Below, one piece after another: positions 2,547 through 55,920 of a DNA stretch of 64,000 nucleotides. This DNA is from a virus. Its lineage: Duplodnaviria > Heunggongvirae > Uroviricota > Caudoviricetes. The translations under genes and the position numbers were made by a program. The DNA is taken from IMG/VR virus record IMGVR_UViG_3300048850_000049, positions 55,864-119,863 of that record. The stretch is one strand, 5' to 3'. The notes under the pieces are model-generated. The model made no database searches, was not told where the DNA came from, and saw nothing but the letters and a program-made list of their open reading frames with translations. The number at the start of each line of letters is the position of its first letter. Position 1 is the stretch's first letter.

Positions 2547-4064
2547 ATGAACGCATACGACGCAGCGCGCCTGATCGAGGAGATCGGCGCAACGTCCTCT
2601 CGCACGGAGAAGGAACGACTGACCAAGATTCTCGCAGATGCCGAGATTGGGAAGTTCATCCTACAGTGGGCTTATAACCCCTTCATCACCTTTGGGCTCA
2701 ATCCTGCGCTCAGTGAAAACGCCGGCAAGTTCAAGATTGAATTCAAGCCGAGCCTGGTCGAAGGGCTTTTGAAGCGCCTGTCGTCGCGTGAACTGACCGG
2801 CCATGCCGCAGAACGCGAGGTAGGTGAGGTTATGGGCGCGCTAGACGAAGACGGCGCACGGCTTCTCTTTCTCATCCTGTCGAAGGACTTGAAGTGCGGC
2901 ATCGCCGAGAACACGATCAATCAGGCTGTGCCTGGTCTCGTGCCGGTGTTCTCCGTGCAGCGCGCCCAGACCTACGAAGCAAAGCGCATGACCAGTGTGA
3001 TGAAGGGCGAGTATAAGCTCGACGGCAATCGCAACACGTTTCTGTGCAAGGATAATGACGGTGGGTTCTTTACGCGCACCGGAAAGCGTGTCGCGGCTCT
3101 CGATTTCATGGTTCCTCCTGTCATCAAGGCTGCCAAGGCAGTTGTGCAGCAGTCGGAGCTCCTGCAGCGTGTCATGGTCCGCAAGGGCGAGACCACGCTC
3201 AACTTCATGCTGGACGGCGAAGCAATGATGACGCTGTTCGAGGAGACCGGCGCATTCAGGCGCACTTCCGAAGATGCTCTCGGAGCGGAGCTTCATCTCT
3301 ACGACATGATGTCCTTTGACGATTTCGATGCGCCTGGCGCCGTCGGTGAGATCCTCGAAGTTCGCCGCACCTGGGTTGCCGAGTTCGTAAGGCTCGCCAA
3401 GATCGCACTCGCCGGCACGAAGGAAGCTGAAGCCATTCAGATCGTCCCGCAGTTCTTCGTCAATGACGATGCAGAGGTCCAGGCACTGTTCGACAGGGCT
3501 CGTTCAAAGACGCTCGCATCCTATCTGGCTCGCGGCAATGCCGAGCGTGAGAAGGATCTTCTGACCAAGACGATCGATAAGGCAACCGGCAAGCCGAAGG
3601 TGCTCGAGGGGATCGTCGTCAAGGATCCGAAGGCCAAGTATGAGAAGAAGAAGTCCTGGGTGTGGATGAAGCTGAAGGCGGAAGAAACCCTCGACCTTCG
3701 CATCACTGGCGCTTATCCCGGCAAGCCGCACACCGAGCTCCAGGACACGTTGGGTGGTATCCAGGTGGTGCACAAGGGCGTTCCGGTCAATGTAGGCGGT
3801 GGATACGAACGTCCTGAGCGCGACGAAATCTGGGCCTTGTGGAACGAGGACCGTCTCAACGGCACGATCGAGATCATTAAGGTCGCAAACGGCAAGAAGC
3901 TGATCTCCTACAATCCGAACCCTGGTTATACGCCGAAGCTGGTGTCGCGCCTTCTCGAGGTCGAATTTATGGAAGAGACGCCCGACGGCTCGCTTCGTCA
4001 TCCTCGCGCCATTCGCTTCCGCGACGATAAAGACGGTGAAGTCGAAGTGAAGGAGGCTGCATAG
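2547..4064 (+). CDS. ATP-dependent DNA ligase
   Basis: Adenylation motif I KxDGxR (EYKLDGNR); motifs IV/V EGIVVKD and WVWMKLK; RBS AGGAGAA upstream. Confidence 0.75.
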   Translation: MNAYDAARLIEEIGATSSRTEKERLTKILADAEIGKFILQWAYNPFITFGLNPALSENAGKFKIEFKPSLVEGLLKRLSSRELTGHAAEREVGEVMGALDEDGARLLFLILSKDLKCGIAENTINQAVPGLVPVFSVQRAQTYEAKRMTSVMKGEYKLDGNRNTFLCKDNDGGFFTRTGKRVAALDFMVPPVIKAAKAVVQQSELLQRVMVRKGETTLNFMLDGEAMMTLFEETGAFRRTSEDALGAELHLYDMMSFDDFDAPGAVGEILEVRRTWVAEFVRLAKIALAGTKEAEAIQIVPQFFVNDDAEVQALFDRARSKTLASYLARGNAEREKDLLTKTIDKATGKPKVLEGIVVKDPKAKYEKKKSWVWMKLKAEETLDLRITGAYPGKPHTELQDTLGGIQVVHKGVPVNVGGGYERPERDEIWALWNEDRLNGTIEIIKVANGKKLISYNPNPGYTPKLVSRLLEVEFMEETPDGSLRHPRAIRFRDDKDGEVEVKEAA

Positions 4065-4088
4065 CAACGTGACCCCTAAGTCGAGCGG

Positions 4089-4823
4089 CTATTCAGCAGC
4101 CCAAAACTGTAGCAACCCGCCGATCAACCCCATAATACCGGCAAGTCCCATTACGGGCCCGTCCTTATGGGTTGCAATTTGAAAAAGCACATGTTGTGCG
4201 CAAAACATAAAAGTCCAACCCACCGCACTAAAGACAATCCATAAAACAATTGAAAAATAGATGATCACAATTGCCCATAGTTCACCCATGAGGGGTGCGG
4301 TAATATACTGCCACGCTGGATCCCGGCAATGTTCAGCTGCCACACCCCAATAACAATTTGGCAAATAGTTAAGCCTCAACACTATTTCTCCTACAGCAAA
4401 CAATGTCATGCTCACCGCGACTGCTATCGACAGCTTCGTGAAAAATCTCCTGCGATTAGTTGCCTCTCCAAGGTAGCGAATTGCCTTCTTTGCGATGAAC
4501 GGATGCACTATCAACCCCAAGCCCATCATTGCCGCAAAATAAGCAACAGAGTTGGAGTCATGAAAGTCTGTTACGTCGTAATACATATGGACGTATACAG
4601 TCGTAGCCATTGCTGCTTGAAGCCACGGCGAGGATAGCGTGGACAAAAATCGACTTGTGGCATAACCGGCAGCCAAGTAGAGCCACAGGTCCTCCGACCG
4701 CCTTCTAATCCACTTCTTAGCTCCATCACTTAAAATGAAATCGAGGAGTTTAAGCCCAAATATAATGACGCCGCTCCACGCGATCACAATACCGATCAAT
4801 TGAGGTATATTCATAAGCGGCAA
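4089..4823 (-). CDS. Polytopic membrane protein, hypothetical (AT-rich island)
   Basis: Several hydrophobic helices; minority strand; local GC clearly lower than the surrounding sequence. Confidence 0.5.
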   Translation of the reverse strand: MPLMNIPQLIGIVIAWSGVIIFGLKLLDFILSDGAKKWIRRRSEDLWLYLAAGYATSRFLSTLSSPWLQAAMATTVYVHMYYDVTDFHDSNSVAYFAAMMGLGLIVHPFIAKKAIRYLGEATNRRRFFTKLSIAVAVSMTLFAVGEIVLRLNYLPNCYWGVAAEHCRDPAWQYITAPLMGELWAIVIIYFSIVLWIVFSAVGWTFMFCAQHVLFQIATHKDGPVMGLAGIMGLIGGLLQFWAAE

Positions 4824-4873
4824 CCCCCAACTCGACTTCTATTCTACTCCCACGTAAAAATCCGGTCGAGGCT

Positions 4874-5974
4874 TCAATGAGCCCTCCTTCGCCGCATGTA
4901 TCTCACGACTTCGGCGAGGTCGATCTGCCCGCGTTCGATCATCCGGACGTAATTTCGGTAGTATCCGCCTGGATTCTTGATCTTCATCGGCCCCGCCTGG
5001 TCCGCGGAATAGATTTCAAGCACCACAAAGAAGGCCGCGGCCGCTCGCATCGGCCCAATTTTCTCGACAGCCTCATCCCAGGCACTCCGGTGTATCCCAA
5101 TCGCGCCTCGCAAACCGGCCGCGGCCGATAGAAGTTCTCTATCGTTGGTGATCGTGTCGGTGTAACTCATTGCATCAGGGCAGGCAGCGCACAAATCTGG
5201 CAAGTTGATTTCGGATTCATTATCTCTTTGCCGTTTGTCACAAGACTGGTCAGGAGAATCTTTGTTGTTCTCAATGAGACGGCAGTTTTTGCCGCCACAG
5301 GCGGCATTATATTGATCCTCAAGGGTAGTTTTCAGACTTTGCCATAGAGAAAGCACAGGCTCGACCGGCTGCGATGACGTTCTACGCGGGGAGAGGGCGC
5401 TCAATCGCTCAAATTCGATCGTGAGCGCGTTCATATCGATGTTCTGACCGAGTGCGTCAAGCGCGCCCAGAAGCTCCTGAGAAGCTCTCCTGCAGATCGT
5501 AATCTGATCGAACAGAGCCATCCGCGCTCGCTGCAACTCCCGGATCGCATCGGTGCGCGCCTGCAGCTCATCTTTACGCGCCAGGAGGGGGGAGAGATCG
5601 AAGCCATAGGCATCAAGAATCTGTCCCTGCTTTGAGCGCACAGCGAAACGTTTGCCATTGGCGCTGTCTCGTGCAAGCACGCATCCTGCTCGGATCAGTT
5701 CACCCACGGCATACCTGATCGCGCGGTCGGAGAGTCCCGTTCGGTCGGAAAGGAACTCGTTTGACGGCCAGACCAGGTAAAGCCCGTTGACCGGCTCGCG
5801 AAAGAACCCGACCAGCTGCGAAAGGATCGATCTTGCGGAAGGGCGCAGGCCAAGAGCAATGGCTGCCAAGTGCGCGCTTTCAAATAGATCCTTCTTGGTG
5901 CCGGCATCCTCCGGCACGTAGGTATCCGCTGCCGGCGCAACGCGGCGCCAGCCTGAATGTCCCTCAGTTCTCAC
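4874..5974 (-). CDS. RepC-like winged-helix replication initiator / DNA-binding protein
   Basis: WPSNEFLSDRTGLSDRAIRYAVGELIRAGCVLARDSANGKRF and AYGFDLSPL resemble RepC (repABC family) N-terminal HTH motifs as I recall them. Confidence 0.5.
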   Translation of the reverse strand: MRTEGHSGWRRVAPAADTYVPEDAGTKKDLFESAHLAAIALGLRPSARSILSQLVGFFREPVNGLYLVWPSNEFLSDRTGLSDRAIRYAVGELIRAGCVLARDSANGKRFAVRSKQGQILDAYGFDLSPLLARKDELQARTDAIRELQRARMALFDQITICRRASQELLGALDALGQNIDMNALTIEFERLSALSPRRTSSQPVEPVLSLWQSLKTTLEDQYNAACGGKNCRLIENNKDSPDQSCDKRQRDNESEINLPDLCAACPDAMSYTDTITNDRELLSAAAGLRGAIGIHRSAWDEAVEKIGPMRAAAAFFVVLEIYSADQAGPMKIKNPGGYYRNYVRMIERGQIDLAEVVRYMRRRRAH

Positions 5975-6086
5975 AGTCCTATCCCTCGTTGGGACAAAGC
6001 TTCGCCGATCACCGAAATCGATGTTGACAGTGATTCGGAAAAGTGGGAAAACCTACTTGTTCACGGTGGTTCGCCACTTACTTATT

Positions 6087-6126
6087 AAAAGCCCTAGAGA
6101 CGCCAATCTCTGGGGCTTTTGCTTTG
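6087..6126. terminator. Bidirectional intrinsic terminator (AAAAGCCCTAGAGA..TCTCTGGGGCTTTT)
   Basis: GC-rich hairpin flanked by an A-run and a T-run, between the repC-like and RHH genes. Confidence 0.5.
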
Positions 6127-6131
6127 TCGGG

Positions 6132-6323
6132 TTAAGCTCCTAGTTCCTTGCTAAACTCACGCACTGCAATTTTAATCGCCTCAGACTGGTTTGCCGCGCC
6201 GAACTTCTTGGCTACGAGTTCCAGCGCTTTCTGATCATCCGGCGTGAGCCAAACGGTCGTATCGCGCATTCCTTCTTTCCGGCGTCGCTCCCGAGTGAGA
6301 GCCATTCTCTCTTTTGCAGTCAT
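6132..6323 (-). CDS. Ribbon-helix-helix (CopG/Arc-like) DNA-binding protein
   Basis: 63 aa, N-terminal basic beta-strand segment (ERMALTRERRRKEG..TVWLTPDD) then two helices; a bidirectional terminator lies downstream. Confidence 0.55.
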   Translation of the reverse strand: MTAKERMALTRERRRKEGMRDTTVWLTPDDQKALELVAKKFGAANQSEAIKIAVREFSKELGA

Positions 6324-6511
6324 GCCTGATTCTCGCTTGTCTTAGCAACTGTTGCTCCGATTCTGCGATCAGTGGCAAGGCGCTGGGGAATTTAGTCCAA
6401 CGGATTTCACTACACCCATTTGTATTACGCCAAAATCGGTCAGTAGCAGGCATTCACAATCGGGAATAAAATTTCATTGCTTTCATTCATAATTGAACAA
6501 AGGGGAAAGAA

Positions 6512-7618
6512 ATGCCAAATATTTTTCTTGAGGCTAATGGCCTTCTTAACACGACCGCTAAGCGCTCGCTCCAATATATCGTTCAAGCCTGTTCAGTGTT
6601 TTGTTTTACCGCAATTACAACTTCTACTCTATTGGCCCAGGACAATCCATTGGTGGCCGCGTGTCAGGCAGTATACGCGACCTCAACCGCAAATGTATCA
6701 ACCGAACGTCGACGCACGGCTGAATTAGAGACTCTACACGACGCCATGTGTAGCGCGGATATCGTGAAAGAAGGCTTTCAATTGGACGCTGGCCTAGAGG
6801 CAATTGTCTATGGTGTTCCCATAGCTGGCGATTTGGGGATCAACTCCACAAAAGATAGGCAGAATTATATCTGCAAGAACTTCGAATCTCTTCGCACAGC
6901 AACCGCGGCTCTTGATACATATTCTAAGACGATTGTCGTGGCGGCTCTGTCAAATTTCAACGGTTGTCTAGAACTCGCCTCCCGCGGCGTTTCTGTTCAG
7001 CCAGCGGTCGCAGCGCCCCAGTCACTGGTGGTTAAGCTAAGTCTTACAGATCCGGACGGTATGACACTCCAAGCATTCGCGAAAACCAACAACATGAATT
7101 GCATCAGTCCTCAAATCGAAGGAAAAGACAAAGTTATCGATCCGGCAAAAGAATATAGATTTAAAAACGACTTCTCTGTCGCCTGCACTCGGTCAGCAGA
7201 GAAAGGAGAGAAGGAATTTTATAAGCCCGGCCACGTAAACTTCACTACAAGCCGATCTAAGTATCCATTCACGTTCAGCCTGGCTGAAGATGAGCTGCTA
7301 GCACCCATGCTTGCCAGTCAGTCGAAAACACGTATTGACGAACTCGAAGGGATGGCGAATAGCGAAAAGGGGCGCGCCGATAAGAACCAAGCGGAGCTTA
7401 ACAAGGTAAACGCCTATACCGTGGTAACTCACGGATATGTTGTTGGACAATACAATCCTGGAGGCCGTGGAAGTCACTTCGGGTGTTACACCCTGGAAAG
7501 CGTGGCTCTAGCGCAACTCTGTCCTAACGCGGTCAAAACAGCGGTAACGCATCTCGGCTCATGGAGTGGCCACCAGTGCGGCTACGCCGCTTACACTGCG
7601 GCGTGTCTGATGCCCTGA
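6512..7618 (+). CDS. Secreted Cys-rich hypothetical protein (AT-rich island)
   Basis: Signal-peptide-like N-terminus (KRSLQYIVQACSVFCFTAITTSTLLAQ), many Cys, low-GC codon usage. Confidence 0.45.
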   Translation: MPNIFLEANGLLNTTAKRSLQYIVQACSVFCFTAITTSTLLAQDNPLVAACQAVYATSTANVSTERRRTAELETLHDAMCSADIVKEGFQLDAGLEAIVYGVPIAGDLGINSTKDRQNYICKNFESLRTATAALDTYSKTIVVAALSNFNGCLELASRGVSVQPAVAAPQSLVVKLSLTDPDGMTLQAFAKTNNMNCISPQIEGKDKVIDPAKEYRFKNDFSVACTRSAEKGEKEFYKPGHVNFTTSRSKYPFTFSLAEDELLAPMLASQSKTRIDELEGMANSEKGRADKNQAELNKVNAYTVVTHGYVVGQYNPGGRGSHFGCYTLESVALAQLCPNAVKTAVTHLGSWSGHQCGYAAYTAACLMP

Positions 7619-7712
7619 CAGGCGGAAGGTCCTTTACGCCGGCGGTATCCACCCGCCGGCAGTGAAAATCAGATAAGAGTTGTTATGGAACTGGCTTGGG
7701 TGGAGTTTCATA

Positions 7713-8300
7713 TCATGGAACCACGATCGACTTTTCCAAGCTTTCCAGTATTGCCTTGTGCCCGTTTATTTGCTTGTTCAAACGAACGATGGTGGTCTCT
7801 TTAATGCTGATGCGAAGAAACTCCACACCGATACAAAAGACGGCCTTGTTGTATTTTACGAAGCCCTTAGACCTAATCTCGTATTCGGGGATTGGCATCT
7901 TTGGACGCTGGAACCGCTCGATTTTTTCGCCGTTATAATTTTCGTGCGCCTTGCGACAGCAGTGCATCGACATAATCAGATCTTTGATGTCCGCTTTTAA
8001 GAAGTCCGCATGTTCCATATCATGAGCAAAGCGGTTTCTTAGCTTTCTGAGGATCCCGATATCCCTAAACTCATCGTCATTTATCAGCCCGAAGGCGCGA
8101 CAAATGCTGGACTTGCCTGAGAAGGTCGACAAAGGTCCATTTGAATCAAAAAGGTCAGTTGTCGCCTTTTGCGACATACCGTTCACCTGGCATTCATAGA
8201 GTAGCATCTGGCGGAGCTCAGCGTCGATTATAGAGGCCGCTAGAATGACGCAGCCACGATCTGACTCTTCCATAAGGTCGTATTTTAGCTCTTCGAACAT
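7713..8300 (-). CDS. HEPN-like (Rx4-6H) protein, Abi/DUF4145-like
   Basis: RKLRNRFAHD motif in a helical 195-aa protein; minority strand; AT-rich island. Confidence 0.5.
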   Translation of the reverse strand: MFEELKYDLMEESDRGCVILAASIIDAELRQMLLYECQVNGMSQKATTDLFDSNGPLSTFSGKSSICRAFGLINDDEFRDIGILRKLRNRFAHDMEHADFLKADIKDLIMSMHCCRKAHENYNGEKIERFQRPKMPIPEYEIRSKGFVKYNKAVFCIGVEFLRISIKETTIVRLNKQINGHKAILESLEKSIVVP

Positions 8301-8402
8301 ACCGGTCTCCGCTCCCCCATCAAAACCCTCTAAGAGCTCCTAGTCTCACATTATGAACAAATTAAAATTCGACAAGGCTTTTGTTTCAATTATGAGTGCA
8401 GA

Positions 8403-8479
8403 AAGTAAGTATGCATTGACTTACTTTTTTTTCAGTGGTCTAACGCTTCCGCTGCGATCCCGTGAGTGTCTCGCTATAA
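8403..8479 (+). promoter_or_regulatory. AAGTAAGT..ACTTACTT palindrome plus T8 (terminator-like), then -35-like GCGATCCCGTG and CGCTATAA
   Basis: Upstream of the XRE regulator gene 8532. Confidence 0.5.
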
Positions 8480-8531
8480 TTCAACTATCGAAAGCGAGAT
8501 GCAATTGATTGATAAAAACCGAACCGTATAA

Positions 8532-8963
8532 ATGGGGATTAAGAACATGACAGCGAAGACAGGAAACCAAACACGGTTTTCCACCTTCATAGAAAAGAAG
8601 CTGATGGAGAGCACAAAGACCCAAAAGGAAATTGCGCAAGCCGTCGGCTACAAGAACCAGAATATGATCACCATGCTTAAGCTTGGTGACGTAAAGCTCG
8701 CTCTCGATCGCGTGCCGGCAATGGCAAAAGCCCTTGATATGGATCCTTTGGATCTTTTCAAAATTGCCCTTACCCAATTCTATGACAACGAGTCCGTCTC
8801 CCTCCTCGTAGGGATCATTGAACGAGGCATTTCTCCGGCCGAGCGTAAGATCCTCGAAACCGTTCGGGAAGCCTCAGGAAGTGATACGCCGGAACTTACC
8901 CCAGAACGAGCCAAAAAGCTCGCGAAGGTCTTCGCCCCTGAAAAGGTGAAGGAGCCTGGATAG
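8532..8963 (+). CDS. XRE-family HTH transcriptional regulator
   Basis: QKEIAQAVGYKNQNMITMLKLGDVKL HTH; preceded by the phage promoter motif and followed by an intrinsic terminator. Confidence 0.6.
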   Translation: MGIKNMTAKTGNQTRFSTFIEKKLMESTKTQKEIAQAVGYKNQNMITMLKLGDVKLALDRVPAMAKALDMDPLDLFKIALTQFYDNESVSLLVGIIERGISPAERKILETVREASGSDTPELTPERAKKLAKVFAPEKVKEPG

Positions 8964-8993
8964 TTCACTCACGACCCACCGCGGTTCAACTGG

Positions 8994-9027
8994 AAGCCTG
9001 CTATAAGCCCAAGCAGGCTTTTCTTTT
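8994..9027 (+). terminator. Intrinsic terminator (GAAGCCTGC..GCAGGCTT plus TTCTTTTG)
   Basis: After the XRE gene stop. Confidence 0.55.
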
Positions 9028-9094
9028 GCGCCGTGACTTAAGTAATTACTGACTTATGCCTGACCACCCCTCCTCGTTCCCCAAGGATTCTACA

Positions 9095-9322
9095 ATGACC
9101 GAACGCACGCCCTTCCTTCGCAATCTGTCCCTCGCGAATGAGGACGCCTACATTCTGGCTTCCGAGCTGGAAGATAAAAAGACCGATGAGGTCAATGGCT
9201 GCACCATCTACTCCGGCAAGCACCCGGAATTTGGCAATATTCACATCGTTATTCCGGCGCTAGGCGACGCAAAGGCACTTTTTCCCTTTGAGCTGAAGCC
9301 TGTTGTTCTCCAGTCATTTTAA
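9095..9322 (+). CDS. Hypothetical small protein
   Basis: ATG with an AAGGA RBS; same orientation as the flanking genes. Confidence 0.3.
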   Translation: MTERTPFLRNLSLANEDAYILASELEDKKTDEVNGCTIYSGKHPEFGNIHIVIPALGDAKALFPFELKPVVLQSF

Positions 9323-9366
9323 GCGCAGAAGTAAGTAATCAAATACTTACAAGGAGTTAGCGAAGC

Positions 9367-11643
9367 ATGAACCGCGATATCATCGAACTGCGCGAGGTAG
9401 TTCAAAAGCTCGTTCCTCTGCTTTCTGGTAAAGGGTTGACGGTCACGCAGCGTGGCAGTCAGGCATATGTTTCAACCAACCCTCGCACGAAGCAGCCTGA
9501 GACCGTCAACATTCCCAATATTCCTGACTCCGCCCCGCCTGAGTTCGTCCAGGCGATCCAGGGCTTCATCGATCACGAAGTCGGTCACGTCCTTCATACC
9601 GACTGGAACTTCTACGGCGGCAAGGGCGGAATGTCAGTCGCGGATCTGCAGGATCCGAAGCGCCGCGCTTTTATGAACACGCACAACATCATCGAGGACG
9701 TGATGATCGAGCGGGAGATGTGCAAGACCTTCCCTGGCTCGGCTCGCAATATCTCAAGCACCCGCAAGTGGTTCCTTGAAAAGATCACCAATGAGGCTCT
9801 CAAGGCTACCAAGGATCCCAAGGAGCAGTTCCGCTACCTGATCGTCCCGATGATGCGCGCCATCGGCGGGCATGAGGAAATGCAGGATTTCATGGACGAC
9901 GGCAAGTGGTGGACGAATATCTACGTCCAGGAGCTGCTCACCAAAATGAAGCCTGCGACCATCGAACTCCTCAAGACCTGCACGAACACGGAAGAGACGC
10001 TTGTCATTTCCGAAGAGGTCCACGCGATCATCATGCCTTCTGCTGCTCCCGAAGCTCCGGTTCCGCCCAAGGAAAAGGAAGAAAAGAAGAAGGATGAGAG
10101 GGATGAAAAGAAAAAGAAGGGCAAGTCTGAGGACAAGCCCGAAAAGAAGGCTGACGAGGGCGACGGTGACGGAGAGCGTGATCATGAGGACACCAAGCCT
10201 GATGAGGACGGCGACGGCGATGCCAAGGACGACGAGAAGGATAAGGATGAGGAAGAAGATGCCGGCGCTGATGCTGGCGATGATGATGGCGCCGAGAAGG
10301 AGTCCGATGAGGCGGAATCCGGAGACGATGACGGCGACACGGATACTGACGAGCCGAGCAAGCCCGAGCCGAAAAATGCGGCTTCTGACGACGATGAGGC
10401 TGGTGAGGATGAAGCAGCTGCGGCAGGCGACGACGCCGATGACGACGCGGCTACCAGTTCAGGCGCTTCTGGTATCGGAGCTGAACCCGGCAACGCAGGC
10501 GATGGTGATGAGAGCGACGGTGATGCGGAAGGTGGCAATCCGCCGATCCGCACCGAAGGCGCCGATGGTGGTGGTGTAGGCACGATCGACGGTGGAGATG
10601 ACCACGAACGCCAGGGAGGAGGAGGCGGTGTCGGCAACGAGTCTGCCAAGTCCTTGTTCGACTATGAGGATGACGACTTTGACGAGGTTGATATGTCCTC
10701 GCAGATTGCGATCAAGATCTCCGACGAAGCCGTCCTCGCGATGGATCCCAAGCAGTATCTCGTATTCACTCGCGAAATGGATCAGATCCAGCCGGTCGAA
10801 GTGCCCGAGAAGATGAACAAGTCTTGGGTTCCGGCTATGGAAGACGAAACTCGCCTGATGACCTCAAAGATGTCGAAGGACATCGAACGCGCAATGGCTT
10901 CACAGAGCCACGTCATCCGCACGCCTGGTCACAAGACCGGCAAGCTGCACGCGCCGTCCCTCTTCCGCGTAACCCAGGGCGATCCGCGAGTATTCTCGCA
11001 GCGCCAGGAACACGTTTCAAAGGATACGGCCGTCTCGCTTGTCGTGGACAACTCCGGCTCGATGGGCGGACCCAAGATGAAGCTCGGCATGATCGCCAGT
11101 TACGCCCTCTCCTCGACGCTCGACCGTGTGAAGATCGCTCATGAGGTGATCGGCTTCACGACCGGCGGATACTGGAACGGCGTTCCCGACTCGATCCGTA
11201 GGGCAATGGCTGACGACGCTGCCAAGGCGGGCATTAACTGGGATCGGATGACGCCGATCATCATGCCTATCTACAAGTCCTTTGAAGAACGCATCACTGC
11301 AACGGTGAAGGCGCGCTTCGCCTATATGATGAATGCGCAAGCTGGTCTCAACGGCAACGTTGACGGCGAGTCCCTGCAGTATGCGGCTGAACGCCTGCTT
11401 AAGCGGCCGGAGAAGCGCAAGGTAATGCTGGTTCTGTCCGACGGACAGCCGGCAGGTTCCCACAAGTCGGGCCCTCACCTCTCGCATGTGGTCAAGGATC
11501 TGGAGCGCTTCGGCATCGAATGCGTCGGAATTGGCATCCTGGATGACAGCGTGAAGAAGTTTTATCCGAAATACACCGTCCTTCGGACTGTGGAGGATCT
11601 GCCTGGTCAGGTCATGGCCGAAATCAAGAAGATCCTCATGTAA
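9367..11643 (+). CDS. cobT: CobT-like vWA-domain protein with a long acidic tract
   Basis: C-terminal MIDAS motif DNSGSM (vWA); roughly 200-aa D/E-rich low-complexity middle; HEVGH motif near the N-terminus; paired with a CobS-like ATPase as in phage cobST pairs. Confidence 0.6.
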   Translation: MNRDIIELREVVQKLVPLLSGKGLTVTQRGSQAYVSTNPRTKQPETVNIPNIPDSAPPEFVQAIQGFIDHEVGHVLHTDWNFYGGKGGMSVADLQDPKRRAFMNTHNIIEDVMIEREMCKTFPGSARNISSTRKWFLEKITNEALKATKDPKEQFRYLIVPMMRAIGGHEEMQDFMDDGKWWTNIYVQELLTKMKPATIELLKTCTNTEETLVISEEVHAIIMPSAAPEAPVPPKEKEEKKKDERDEKKKKGKSEDKPEKKADEGDGDGERDHEDTKPDEDGDGDAKDDEKDKDEEEDAGADAGDDDGAEKESDEAESGDDDGDTDTDEPSKPEPKNAASDDDEAGEDEAAAAGDDADDDAATSSGASGIGAEPGNAGDGDESDGDAEGGNPPIRTEGADGGGVGTIDGGDDHERQGGGGGVGNESAKSLFDYEDDDFDEVDMSSQIAIKISDEAVLAMDPKQYLVFTREMDQIQPVEVPEKMNKSWVPAMEDETRLMTSKMSKDIERAMASQSHVIRTPGHKTGKLHAPSLFRVTQGDPRVFSQRQEHVSKDTAVSLVVDNSGSMGGPKMKLGMIASYALSSTLDRVKIAHEVIGFTTGGYWNGVPDSIRRAMADDAAKAGINWDRMTPIIMPIYKSFEERITATVKARFAYMMNAQAGLNGNVDGESLQYAAERLLKRPEKRKVMLVLSDGQPAGSHKSGPHLSHVVKDLERFGIECVGIGILDDSVKKFYPKYTVLRTVEDLPGQVMAEIKKILM
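10040..10690 (+). repeat. Coding low-complexity D/E-rich tract (about 215 aa) inside the cobT-like gene
   Basis: EEKKKDERDEKKKKGKSEDKPEKKADEGDGDGERDHEDTKPDEDGDGDAKDDEKDKDEEEDAG... Confidence 0.8.
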
Positions 11644-11749: not shown

Positions 11750-13054
11750 ATGAACCAGGTAGTTGAAACTGGTGCAGTCACCGCTGCACCGGACGGGAAG
11801 ATTTTGTGCCATATCGATAACGTTCGCGTTCACTCGATCCAGTCGCACATCCAGAAAAACCATAAGGGCTGGACGATCGAAAAGTATCAGGCCGATTTTC
11901 CTGGTGAACCGATTCTGTCGGACACTGCAAAAACGCTGCTCGCCAAGCGTGAGCAGGAAATGAGCGCCGCGGCTAGTGCTGCGCCGGCCGCTGCATCAGT
12001 TCAGGCGCAGATGGTCGCCGACGCGACCGGCATGTCCGCTCCCCAGGTCATCGTCAATCAAGCGTTCTTCCACGATCTATTCGAACTTGGCGCTGCACCT
12101 TCTGCGCTCTCGACCAAGGGTCAGCCCATCCCGGTCAAGACGCTCTCCGGGCATGACAGCCTCTCGGCCGATTACCTGCCCGAGATCGACAAGGCGTATG
12201 TGTTCAACATTGATCTTCTCAAGAAGGTCATTATCGGCTTGGAACTGAATATTCCCTCCTATCTATGGGGCTATCACGGCACCGGCAAGACGACGCTCCT
12301 GCAGCAGGCTGCAGCGCGCACCCGCCGTCCGTTCATGCGCGTCCAGCATACGATCAATATGCAGGAGTCGGACGTTCTTGGTCAGTGGACCGTGCGTTCG
12401 CGGCCCGTTGAGGTGGAGCAAATCGACCAGACCGGTGTCAAGCACATGGTTGTTCAGCAGCAGTCCGTCACCGAGTTCCAGCTTGGACCGTTGCCGCTCG
12501 CGATGATCAACGGCTGGGTCTACTGCGCCGATGAATACGATTTCGCGATGCCGTCTGTAACTGCGGTCTATCAGCCGGTTCTCGAAGGCCAGGCGCTGAT
12601 CATCAAGGATGCTCCTGCACACTTCCGCAAGATCGTCCCGCATCCGAACTTCCGCTTCGTTGCAACCGGCAACACCAACGGCATCGGTGACGAAACCGGT
12701 CTCTATCAAGGCACGCTTGTGCAGAACGCAGCCAACTATTCCCGCTTCGGCATCACTGTCGAGGTCGAATACATGGAAGCGAAGATCGAACAGGCGATCC
12801 TCACCTCCAAGACCGGCATCGACGCGGCGAACGCCTCGAAGATCGTCAAGATGGCGAATGAGGTGCGCAAGATGTTCCGCGATGGCAAGATCACCATGAC
12901 GATCTCGCCGCGTGAGCTGCTCCGCTGCGCTTCGCTCGGGATCGCTTACGGCGGTAACTGGACGCTCGGTATGGAGCTCGCTTTCGCAAACCGTCTGTCG
13001 CGCGTCGATAAGAAGGTTGTCCAGGAATACATGCAGCGGGTGTTCGGATCTTGA
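11750..13054 (+). CDS. cobS: CobS-like AAA+ ATPase (AAA_5/MoxR type)
   Basis: Walker A GYHGTGKTTLL; follows the vWA partner directly; RBS AGAGGGAA. Confidence 0.6.
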   Translation: MNQVVETGAVTAAPDGKILCHIDNVRVHSIQSHIQKNHKGWTIEKYQADFPGEPILSDTAKTLLAKREQEMSAAASAAPAAASVQAQMVADATGMSAPQVIVNQAFFHDLFELGAAPSALSTKGQPIPVKTLSGHDSLSADYLPEIDKAYVFNIDLLKKVIIGLELNIPSYLWGYHGTGKTTLLQQAAARTRRPFMRVQHTINMQESDVLGQWTVRSRPVEVEQIDQTGVKHMVVQQQSVTEFQLGPLPLAMINGWVYCADEYDFAMPSVTAVYQPVLEGQALIIKDAPAHFRKIVPHPNFRFVATGNTNGIGDETGLYQGTLVQNAANYSRFGITVEVEYMEAKIEQAILTSKTGIDAANASKIVKMANEVRKMFRDGKITMTISPRELLRCASLGIAYGGNWTLGMELAFANRLSRVDKKVVQEYMQRVFGS

Positions 13055-13056
13055 GT

Positions 13057-13710
13057 ATGACGCAGTATCGCGATCCGAAGGAAAGCCGCGCCCAGATTAA
13101 GGCTTTCGCTCACAAGGTTCTCCGCCGGGTGCATTCACTCGGCGCGAGGACGCAGACACTGGACGATGTTGAGGGCGAATTGTGGGTAGCATGGTGCCTC
13201 GCCTGTGAACGCTTCAATCCGGAAGCAGGCTGCGCCTTCTCGACCTATCTCTACACGGGTATGCGCCGGCACATTAATCGCTGGATCGAAAAGAATTTCG
13301 AGCGCTTCCACGATGAGACGGTCGCCGCGTCCCTAGACGCTTCCTATGGGTCAGAGATGTCTGAGGATGGTTCGGGCTCGACGCTCGGCGAGGCAGTCGC
13401 TGACACGCATATGCGTCAAGACCAGGAATACGAGCAGAAGGATTGCTTCGCTTACGCCCTCACCCGGTTGTCTGACCGCGCCAAGATGTTCCTGACCTTC
13501 CTTAAGGATCATCCGCCCGAGCTGATGGCGCAGATGAAGGATCTCGAAGCGAAAGCGAAGCACGCGAAGGAACTTGGCGTCACCTATGCCATGCCCAACC
13601 GTCTCACCAGCTTCATGATCTTCGATTTCATGGGCGCTACTCGCGTCGAACGGAAGCAAATTATGGACGAGGTTGCCCAGGTGGGGCAGCTGATTTCGAA
13701 CCAGGGTTAA
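13057..13710 (+). CDS. Sigma-70 family protein (region 2-like)
   Basis: ERFNPEAGCAFSTYLYTGMRRHINRWIEK resembles sigma region 2.1-2.4 (FNPE.G..FSTY....IR..I); start overlaps the cobS stop. Confidence 0.55.
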   Translation: MTQYRDPKESRAQIKAFAHKVLRRVHSLGARTQTLDDVEGELWVAWCLACERFNPEAGCAFSTYLYTGMRRHINRWIEKNFERFHDETVAASLDASYGSEMSEDGSGSTLGEAVADTHMRQDQEYEQKDCFAYALTRLSDRAKMFLTFLKDHPPELMAQMKDLEAKAKHAKELGVTYAMPNRLTSFMIFDFMGATRVERKQIMDEVAQVGQLISNQG

Positions 13711-18867: not shown

Positions 18868-18915
18868 TGCAATCCCTTTCATTTTGCGCTATAAAGTAAG
18901 TAAGCACTTACTTAG
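18868..18915 (+). promoter_or_regulatory. Promoter (GTGCAATCCC .. TTTGCGCTATAA) plus palindrome AGTAAGTAAGCACTTACTTAG
   Basis: Upstream of gene 18943. Confidence 0.55.
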
Positions 18916-18942
18916 TGTGAATCCTCTCTACTGGAGAATATC

Positions 18943-28452: not shown

Positions 28453-28499
28453 CGCAGTCCCGATAGATTTGCGCTATAAAGTAAGTAAGCACTTATTTA
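28453..28499 (+). promoter_or_regulatory. Promoter (CGCAGTCCCGAT .. TTTGCGCTATAA) plus palindrome AGTAAGTAAGCACTTATTTAC
   Basis: Upstream of gene 28513. Confidence 0.55.
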
Positions 28500-28512
28500 C
28501 TAGGAGATCGAA

Positions 28513-34315: not shown

Positions 34316-34569
34316 AGAAGTTCGCCCTTCTCGCGGCAGTTGCCGCAACCTCGCTCCTCGCCGGCTGCGGTGTGGATCCGGACAATGCTCGCCGCGCCCT
34401 GGAAGCGCAGGGCATCACCAACGTCCAGATCGGCGGACATGCCTTCTTCGGTTGCGACAAGAATGATCAGTTCGCGTCCAATTTCACCGGCGTCGGCGTC
34501 AATGGCAAGCCTATCTCCGGCGTTCTGTGCGGCGGGATCTTCAAGGGCATCACCGTTCGCTATGACTAA
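34312..34569 (+). CDS. Small lipoprotein
   Basis: Signal peptide plus lipobox LLAGC. Confidence 0.55.
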   Translation: MKKFALLAAVAATSLLAGCGVDPDNARRALEAQGITNVQIGGHAFFGCDKNDQFASNFTGVGVNGKPISGVLCGGIFKGITVRYD

Positions 34570-36573: not shown

Positions 36574-36641
36574 GCCCCGGTAGCACAGGGCCGTGCAGTG
36601 GTTGAAAGCCAAAGGTCGTGGTTCGACTCCACGCCGGGGAT
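36574..36641 (+). tRNA. tRNA-like element 1 (acceptor/D/T arms; no canonical anticodon stem found by eye)
   Basis: 6-bp acceptor CCCCGG/CCGGGG, U8A9, D-stem GCAC/GUGC, T-arm CGUGG-UUCGACU-CCACG. Confidence 0.35.
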
Positions 36642-41521: not shown

Positions 41522-41568
41522 AGCACTCCCTCGACTTGCGCGCTATAAAGTAAGTAAGCACTTAATTA
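41522..41568 (+). promoter_or_regulatory. Promoter (GCACTCCCTCGAC .. GCGCTATAA) plus palindrome AGTAAGTAAGCACTTAATTAT
   Basis: Upstream of the RNA ligase gene. Confidence 0.55.
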
Positions 41569-55722: not shown

Positions 55723-55920
55723 CTATTCCTGGCTGATCGGGAAGACTTCTGCGCCGACGAAGAACGCCTCTCTCAATATCTGATCGAGGTTAACTTCGCT
55801 CGCCTCGAGAAACTGGACTACATCAAAGGAGTATTTCCTTTGCGCAAAGTGATGTTCCACGACATTAAGAACAGCAGCCCTCAATTCAGTCAGCTGCCCT
55901 TCAAATTCACACCTATGCAT
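55723..55920 (-). CDS. Small hypothetical protein, paralog of 54475..54684
   Basis: ATGCAT start with an AAGGAAAA RBS; shares a terminator with the convergent + gene. Confidence 0.4.
   Translation of the reverse strand: MHRCEFEGQLTELRAAVLNVVEHHFAQRKYSFDVVQFLEASEVNLDQILREAFFVGAEVFPISQE

Follow-up and report, generated by a model that had tools for sequence, protein, structure and literature searches.

We analysed a 64,000-nucleotide stretch of phage DNA (IMG/VR record IMGVR_UViG_3300048850_000049, positions 55,864 to 119,863; hereafter the window, to which all coordinates refer unless another genome or locus is named) and focussed on an AT-rich island at 6324–8531 which carries two convergent genes, one for a Cys-rich protein of 368 amino acids (aa) with export features and the other for a HEPN protein of 195 aa. 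The locus is a typical accessory-gene pair in a phage-plasmid cargo hotspot, made up of one more solo HEPN gene and a member of an uncharacterised exported family. The best overall explanation, to which we give slightly better than even chances, is that a phage-plasmid carries these as two cargo genes and that the HEPN gene would work like HepS, a solo HEPN protein encoded by a Salmonella prophage.

Judged from its genes and DNA, the window is part of a Rhizobium siphophage genome of about 120 kb which belongs to the RHph_X66 / B1VFA / RHEph10 lineage; identical copies of the proteins are encoded on a JGI contig of 119,863 bp. The backbone has 76–78% DNA identity to RHph_X66, V1VFA-S and B1VFA, with the RHEph10 group being more distant, and the order of the window genes (primase, ligase, RepC, CopG-like, XRE, a small open reading frame (ORF), CobT, CobS, sigma factor and DnaE) matches that of the relatives. 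Two relatives are on record as plasmids, pLM21S1 from Sinorhizobium sp. LM21 and pRlX6 from R. beringeri, and a prophage-plasmid lifestyle has been proposed as possible for B1VFA and V1VFA-S from their parA, parB and repC genes (genome announcement, PMC12509600); the phage described here can probably also persist as a plasmid. When we sought closer relatives, a scan of IMG/VR with CobT returned only loci of 55% identity, and a metagenome scan with XRE returned one locus which is not syntenic. Nearly all genes of the window are on the plus strand; within the first 12 kb, the chief departure from this is the minus-strand block at 4089–6323 (an orphan membrane protein, RepC and the CopG-like protein) together with the 195-aa gene. 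The features of the island and its edges are:

6324–6511, no strand assigned: intergenic, non-backbone DNA with a GC content of 0.436, between the CopG-like gene (6132–6323, minus) and the Cys-rich gene
6512–7618, plus: gene for the 368-aa Cys-rich, predicted exported protein, with the leader at about residues 1–42 (6512–6637)
7633–7666 (core 7638–7660), no strand assigned: GC-rich hairpin GCCGGCGG-N7-CCGCCGGC between the convergent 3' ends, without a U-tract
7660–7696, no strand assigned: possible remnant of an ancestral CopG–XRE intergenic element (in relatives, AAAGTyGCrTAAG..CTTATGGAACT)
7713–8300, minus: gene for the 195-aa stand-alone HEPN protein of MtlR/HepS-like architecture, with the predicted catalytic motif R85..R88-N-R-F-A-H93 at 8022–8048
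8301–8392, minus: non-backbone, AT-rich upstream region of the HEPN gene, with backbone homology beginning only at 8393
8393–8531, plus: backbone regulatory region at the right edge of the island, which aligns to RHph_X66, V1VFA-S and B1VFA (z 17–20)
8454–8479, plus: phage promoter motif GCGATCCC-N10-CGCTATAA ahead of XRE, one of 17 copies

The GC content of 6324–8531 is 0.476 compared to a window mean of 0.559 (standard deviation 0.021 for windows of 2208 bp), making this the lowest-GC stretch of 2.2 kb in the 64 kb (the minimum among 2.2-kb windows lies at 6401), and the 0.24% of sliding windows which are as GC-poor all overlap it. Of 65 non-overlapping ORFs compared, none has a lower GC than the 195-aa gene (0.466, z −3.3) and none a lower GC at third codon positions (GC3) than the 368-aa gene (0.499, z −3.0), and the two genes differ in GC3 (0.50 for the 368-aa gene versus 0.59 for the 195-aa gene). 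The ORFs converge, each is preceded by a Shine-Dalgarno-like sequence, and both have true homologues (E 5e-140 and 3e-49). A first-pass annotation, made from the sequence alone, had described a drop in GC at 6.3–8.5 kb and an accessory island holding these two ORFs, and had suggested that related phages be compared for its presence or absence; the dip proved to be the strongest in the window, the ORFs were confirmed, and the comparison bears the accessory island out.

In this comparison, both island genes are missing from all nine relatives that we examined. The gap between the CopG-like and XRE genes is empty and 340–400 bp long in seven of these (V1VFA-S, B1VFA, RHEph10, RHph_Y2_11, RHph_N1_10 and pLM21S1, plus near-identical siblings by the same layout), and in RHph_X66 and pRlX6 it holds one other gene of 116/117 aa on the minus strand, the product of which has a signal-peptide-like N-terminus (MQSLKRHFIPGLILVAATLAGGSSQAADG…):

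RHph_X66 8772–9125, minus: hotspot gene of 116/117 aa, directly after the conserved TTATGGAAC and at the same position as the HEPN gene
pRlX6 4861–5211, minus: the same 116/117-aa hotspot gene, in the same position

Because a different gene occupies the site of the HEPN gene in these two relatives, the CopG–XRE site takes up varied cargo, and by its gene content the short divergent control region between the copG–repC and XRE–cobT operons can be described as a hotspot for foreign DNA.

The region that lacks homology is also low in GC and is wider than the 6330–8520 first outlined. Homology to the DNA of the relatives ends at 4046, the end of the ligase gene, and returns at about 8393–8394; 4047–8392 has no DNA homology to RHph_X66, B1VFA, V1VFA-S or pLM21S1 except for 80 bp in repC (5230–5312), and the RepC and CopG-like proteins are only 43% and 23% identical to those of B1VFA. 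These sequences suggest either an exchange of the replication and copy-control module or its rapid evolution, with a different incompatibility type as a possible result. On the same alignments, a variable region of replicon and accessory genes extends over 4.05–8.4 kb, and the island makes up its right-hand part. A third accessory gene in this region, the orphan at 4089–4823 (minus), encodes a multi-pass membrane protein of 244 aa (GC 0.467, z −3.2) and sits in the ligase–RepC slot, which in the relatives is filled by three or four small ORFs on the plus strand. Pfam, PHROG, NCBIfam and PADLOC gave no match to this protein, nor did tblastn in the phage collection. The search for flanking repeats or target-site duplications around the island found only short repeats at chance level, and the island has no integrase, transposase or homing endonuclease. 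When the CopG–XRE gaps of six relatives were compared to the segment at its left edge (6324–6511), no similarity was seen (z no higher than 1.4). We note that there is a strong hairpin on the minus strand between the CopG-like gene and repC (6087–6120, −18.8 kcal/mol, z −3.9), which may be an attenuator or terminator limiting repC expression.

The 195-aa protein is a member of the HEPN superfamily by fold, motif and profile. Its predicted α-helical bundle superposes on solved HEPN domains, it has an R-x4-6-H motif in which the Arg is followed by a polar residue (R88-N89-R-F-A-H93), and it matches PF05068 (MtlR) at 2e-9 with 38 bits against a cut-off of 25.2. R85, R88, N89, A92 and H93 are invariant in ten database homologues and three phage relatives, which together with the profile match upholds the HEPN motif named in the first-pass annotation, and there is a conserved N-terminal E-S-D-R-G (residues 12–16, at 8253–8267). 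When nine proteins were scanned (six database homologues, including the window protein, and three phage relatives), matches were also found to DUF4145, HEPN_RiboL-PSP, Abi_2 and HEPN_Cthe2314, with DUF4145 matched by six of the nine (best 4.4e-5) and Abi_2 by two. The NCBIfam model of the MltR family (NF008234) gave 37.7 bits against a cut-off of 149, with only residues 45–120 matching.

This HEPN family is rare and patchy, with ten clusters found by a word-indexed search of 5.8 billion proteins, and the matches are scattered over Pseudomonas, Nitrospiraceae, Armatimonas, Verrucomicrobia, Acidobacteriota, Planctomycetes and other genomes, and over plasmids of six genera. Homologues of both island genes are GC-poor compared to their own surroundings elsewhere. 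Relatives of the HEPN gene occur as lone genes in the phages KS9, Atu_ph08 and Lo5R7ANS, where KS9 gp48 lies between replication genes and HNH/terminase genes, and Atu_ph08 gp19 and Lo5R7ANS_48 are on the strand opposite to the neighbouring structural genes; a further relative adjoins an integrase in an integrative element. No conserved neighbour was found across the homologous loci: the 591-aa DUF6538/integrase-like protein of locus L007 and the 643-aa protein of locus L010 are mutually unrelated, and the Pseudomonas sp. KK4 locus has only a C5-methylase nearby. We found no link to mannitol or phosphotransferase system (PTS) genes, as the neighbours here are repC, copG, XRE and cobT, and the homologous loci have integrase, resolvase, methylase and phage genes without any mtl gene. 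No antitoxin-like partner ORF adjoins the HEPN gene, no ORF with homologues flanks it on its strand, no neighbour has a Pfam match to MNT/NTP_transf, and no Rfam match was found at E≤1 in 5800–9400. The closest HEPN homologue (54% identity, L007 134–2529) overlaps the stop codon of the 591-aa DUF6538/integrase-SAM-like gene, in an element which also carries a resolvase and an M78 peptidase, and the overlap suggests translational coupling of this homologue with the integrase.

The 368-aa protein carries 12 Cys, of which two are leader residues and the other ten belong to the mature part; the count of about 14 Cys in the first-pass annotation was too high. The signal peptide described there is supported. 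The leader has a KR n-region, a hydrophobic core of 19 residues (Kyte–Doolittle 1.65) and an LLA|QD which aligns with the AxA|Q of homologues. The n-region is unusually long and there is no other in-frame start, and the Shine-Dalgarno sequence AAAGGGGAAAGAA immediately 5' of the ATG at 6512 fits this one. Across a 95-member alignment, a hydrophobic N-terminal leader was found by a heuristic test in 86 members (a median of 26 residues ahead of the first invariant Cys), exactly ten Cys follow the leader in 86 members, and six Cys are invariant with several more nearly so. Because of the leader and the ten-Cys pattern of the family, the protein is predicted to be Sec-exported and to form up to five disulfides. 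A lipoprotein reading of C51 (VAAC) was considered and rejected, as this Cys lies nine residues past the hydrophobic core and the homologues have no lipobox.

The 368-aa protein has no match in Pfam, PHROGs, NCBIfam, PADLOC or the phage and plasmid collections, and the family as a whole has no Pfam or PDB match, but an exhaustive profile search recovered 599 cluster representatives (416 at 1e-10), nearly all of about 330–370 aa. The nearest homologues are from Rhizobium laguerreae (64%) and R. giardinii (59%), and the gene therefore circulates in the host genus. Elsewhere, its contexts are mobile or close to defence genes: in a Pseudomonas locus the family member lies near an integrase and is followed by pyocin-activator-like, DNA methylase and ClpP protease genes in a prophage-like arrangement, another locus adjoins the terminase of a lambda-like prophage, and in a Tn7-like transposon (L018 950–9367) the family member is the first cargo gene after tnsA–tnsB–tnsC/tniB–tniQ and is followed by an unrelated 340-aa gene; at other loci the neighbours are AbiEi/AbiEii genes, or RT-trypsin and AAA_13 genes. 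Looking for a partner gene, we found that the small upstream ORFs of loci L004 and L005 are unrelated, and that the 340-aa gene of the Tn7 locus is not a paralogue. The predicted fold, itself of low confidence, has an N-terminal helical part, an Ig-like β-sandwich (about 160–257), a long helix (271–299) and a small C-terminal β domain ending in GxxCGY.

Regarding the INDEPENDENCE of the two island genes, their families co-occur in none of 8 + 19 other loci (278 kb). The 94-bp spacer between the convergent genes, when aligned locally to the gaps of relatives, scored z 3.0–5.4 compared to shuffles in four of six (it should be noted that the relatives are not independent), and 35 bp of this spacer (7660–7696) resemble an element kept in the CopG–XRE gap of every relative. 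By this resemblance, which is suggestive only, 7660–7696 may be a remnant of the backbone left between the island genes. From the lack of co-occurrence, the backbone-like remnant, the differing GC3 values and the presence of the RHph_X66 cargo gene at the HEPN position, we conclude with moderate confidence that two unrelated cargo genes were probably acquired in two separate events and now flank the remnant, and that the first-pass treatment of the two genes as a unit is not supported.

Expression of the island was considered alongside that of the phage genes. A phage promoter-like motif, GCGATCCC-N10-11-CGCTATAA, has 17 plus-strand copies in the window, typically just 5' of genes, and one minus-strand copy; the sigma factor that the phage encodes (ORF 13051–13710) may recognise this motif:

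1386, 8472, 18266, 18887, 19242, 28472, 32617, 35910, 37611, 41541, 45767, 47560, 50155, 52928, 56074, 56748 and 58484, plus: the 17 copies of the promoter motif

The copy ahead of XRE agrees with the phage promoter that had been assigned to this gene at the outset. The motif is absent ahead of both island genes (6324–6511 and 8301–8392), which would fit host-type, moron-like expression. By eye, weak sigma-70-like hexamers can be placed 5' of the HEPN gene (TTGAAA-N17-TTTAAT at 8389–8361), but these were missed by the consensus scan; the Shine-Dalgarno of this gene is GGGGGAGCGGAG (within 8301–8392). Between the convergent 3' ends, the 8–9 bp GC stem of the hairpin at 7638–7660 is present in the minimum-energy structures of both strands, although z for the whole segment is only −2.0 and −1.4; the hairpin is a possible terminator for either strand, but was not reported by the consensus terminator scan.

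A conserved palindrome, AGTAAGTATGCATTGACTTACT followed by T8, lies at 8404–8433 (hairpin −9.6 kcal/mol), and this copy (8404–8425, then T8) is conserved in the island-free relatives. The general form, AGTAAGTAAGCACTTACT, follows the CGCTATAA box at a distance of 1–8 nt in ten or more promoters and also occurs in several other leaders, with 23 matches compared to 8.4 ± 2.5 in shuffles, and could be a repressor operator (possibly for XRE) or a 5'-leader hairpin:

8404–8425, 9330–9351, 18895–18916, 28480–28501 and 41549–41566, no strand assigned: examples of the palindrome, by pattern match

The XRE gene is itself part of the backbone, and because it is 70% identical in relatives without the HEPN gene, it is not a dedicated partner of that gene. 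XRE lies outside the island, and the regulation of the island by it that had been suggested at the outset is not supported. Further into the window, the CobT/VWA-like protein (9367–11643) has a long, highly acidic low-complexity insert at residues 230–440 approximately (10000–10650), which accounts for the strong GC and AT skew and the spurious overlapping ORFs there. ARAGORN identified a tRNA-Trp(CCA) at 34358–34435 (minus) and a tRNA-Phe(GAA) at 36574–36641 (plus), and a 'pseudo-CCA' tRNA is listed in relatives in the B1VFA / V1VFA-S paper (PMC12509600).

HepS (STM14_3211), from the Salmonella prophage Gifsy-1, is a solo HEPN abortive-infection anticodon nuclease (PMC13043305; PDB 9oij and 9oik). 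It is a tetramer which is harmless when expressed alone; tail-tip proteins of other siphophages activate it allosterically, whereupon it cuts tRNAs in the anticodon loop and so aborts the infection (PMC13043305). In the explanation we favour, the island genes would be expressed during plasmid lysogeny, and the 195-aa HEPN protein would be a latent RNase, made without an antitoxin and held inactive until a component of a competing phage triggered it to cut tRNA or mRNA and so abort infection by that phage. The Cys-rich protein might act at the envelope of the lysogen by altering surface or periplasmic properties, for example by blocking the entry of other phages, though we would propose superinfection exclusion or a similar envelope role for it with low confidence. 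For the island as a whole, superinfection exclusion or abortive infection is what we infer by analogy.

A number of points weigh against this explanation. Plasmid lysogeny is a proposal for the lineage, and the idea of two insertions depends on the 35-bp similarity, which is suggestive only. The scan for consensus sigma-70 promoters found fewer promoter-like sites than in shuffles and none usable for the island genes, and PADLOC-DB v2 returned no family at E≤0.1 for either island protein or their neighbours. The nearest solved relatives of the HEPN protein, MtlR and YggD, are regulators and not nucleases, and because E. coli MtlR, a regulator, retains the R-x4-H spacing, retention of the motif does not prove catalysis. 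There is no detectable sequence similarity to HepS, with 13% identity in the structural alignment. Some relatives of the HEPN gene are in phages which are probably strictly lytic (e.g. the Autographiviridae phage Lo5R7ANS), for which defence of a lysogen is likely to be inapplicable. Finally, the low-confidence model of the 368-aa protein (predicted local distance difference test score 58) was built from only seven sequences and gives no functional clue, with the β-sandwich finding generic Ig-like matches only.

Four other explanations were weighed against this one. The 195-aa protein might instead be a non-catalytic MtlR-like regulator which binds a host or phage protein or RNA and tunes lysis, plasmid maintenance or a carbon-status response without cutting RNA. 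In its favour, profile and fold comparisons both rank the regulators MtlR and YggD first, the name given to relatives by JGI and RefSeq is 'MltR family transcriptional regulator', no RNase activity is known for E. coli MtlR, which keeps R-x4-H, a non-catalytic mode has been proposed for part of the family (Anantharaman et al., PMC3710099), and the gene adjoins a replication and regulatory control region. However, the full RxxRNxxAH, including the polar Asn typical of active HEPNs, is invariant in the ten homologues and three phage relatives whereas Vibrio MtlR has lost the site, no mannitol or PTS gene lies in the vicinity, the NCBIfam MltR score is far below its cut-off, and the family is GC-poor, patchily distributed and carried on mobile elements. 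As the HEPN gene is absent from all relatives, it is also not needed for backbone regulation, and we regard this explanation as unlikely. We consider it more improbable still that the protein is a phage-offensive or housekeeping RNase of lytic growth, responsible for the shut-off of host mRNA or tRNA or the processing of phage transcripts. This would suit the relatives in Lo5R7ANS and Atu_ph08, both probably strictly lytic, the use of HEPN RNases in RNA processing as well (PMC3710099), and the many conserved 5'-leader palindromes of the window, which could be processing sites; yet the gene lacks the phage promoter motif, lies on the strand opposite to almost all phage genes, and is missing from all nine relatives, in which these promoters and palindromes also occur.

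A toxin–antitoxin module stabilising the phage-plasmid, in which the HEPN protein is the toxin and XRE or an unannotated small gene or RNA the antitoxin, is very improbable given that no MNT or other partner ORF adjoins the gene, that XRE is a backbone gene in relatives without the HEPN gene, and that there is neither a conserved partner in 19 homologous loci nor an Rfam RNA in 5800–9400. The idea with the slightest chance is that the two genes form one cassette, with an exported sensor or receptor-blocking protein and a cytoplasmic RNase effector under XRE. Although the genes are adjacent, both GC-poor, both absent from the relatives and share one hairpin at their 3' ends, the failure of the families to co-occur in any of the other loci largely refutes it; the genes are convergent and so not co-transcribed, GC3 differs, a backbone-like remnant may separate them, and in RHph_X66 only the HEPN position is occupied, by another cargo gene.

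Very little work has been done on rhizobial phage-plasmids, in which this locus points to a cargo hotspot next to the region controlling replication. Solo HEPN defence genes, a class which has only just been characterised mechanistically (HepS, 2026), gain with it a candidate from a phage of a soil alphaproteobacterium, and the locus also flags a sizeable exported family (about 600 clusters), recurrent as prophage and Tn7-like cargo, which is without a database entry. Neither point changes current concepts, and known themes are extended here to a new host group. A wider and more speculative view, which we think rather doubtful, is that the phage- and element-borne MtlR-like RxxRNxxAH proteins (the one here, KS9 gp48, Atu_ph08 gp19, Lo5R7ANS_48 and phrog_22031) are an unrecognised clade of single-gene abortive-infection RNases, and that the ten-Cys family is a new class of envelope factor carried by prophages and transposons, acting for example in superinfection exclusion. 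If this were true of the clade, then the enterobacterial 'mannitol repressor' would descend from a mobile defence nuclease.

Amongst known systems, the 195-aa HEPN protein resembles HepS in its size, solo arrangement, type of carrier, replication-gene neighbourhood, motif and fold sub-type, and like HepS it is encoded by a temperate phage as a single gene, with neither a partner nor an immunity gene. It differs in its host, which is an alphaproteobacterium, and in its carrier, a phage-plasmid where HepS has an integrated lambdoid prophage, and a profile of the ten-member HEPN family found only MtlR entries and not HepS amongst all PDB sequences at E≤10 (a set assumed to include 9oij and 9oik, both of which are in the fold library). 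We therefore describe the protein as one that may work like HepS, which we consider roughly an even proposition or a little better, and do not file it as a member of the HepS family. In structure, the MtlR-like RxxRNxxAH proteins are closest to the MtlR/YggD regulators, and of the other solved structures HepS comes next. The canonical members of MtlR/YggD (PF05068; PDB 3brj, 6kcr and 3c8g; mannitol operon repressor) are gammaproteobacterial, mtl-linked and thought to be non-catalytic, and the Vibrio MtlR is without the motif Arg and His; in contrast, the 195-aa protein is encoded by a phage and away from any mtl gene, retains RNxxAH in full and falls far below the NCBIfam MltR cut-off. The DUF4145 / Abi-type HEPN proteins (PF13643; Abi_2, PF07751) and further solo HEPN defence proteins such as ApeA and AbiV share with it the superfamily, the catalytic motif and a mobile or defence-linked distribution, but the window protein itself reaches none of these models at E≤0.1. 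The island as a whole is most readily compared to phage morons such as the lambdoid bor and lom, in having extra genes placed between backbone genes, with a deviant composition, absent from close relatives and without the phage promoter motif, and in that one of the genes encodes a (predicted) exported protein, as many morons do. It is set apart from these by having only a GC-rich hairpin without a U-tract and weak promoter hexamers, by its 120-kb phage-plasmid carrier, and by its site in an intergenic region of replication control.

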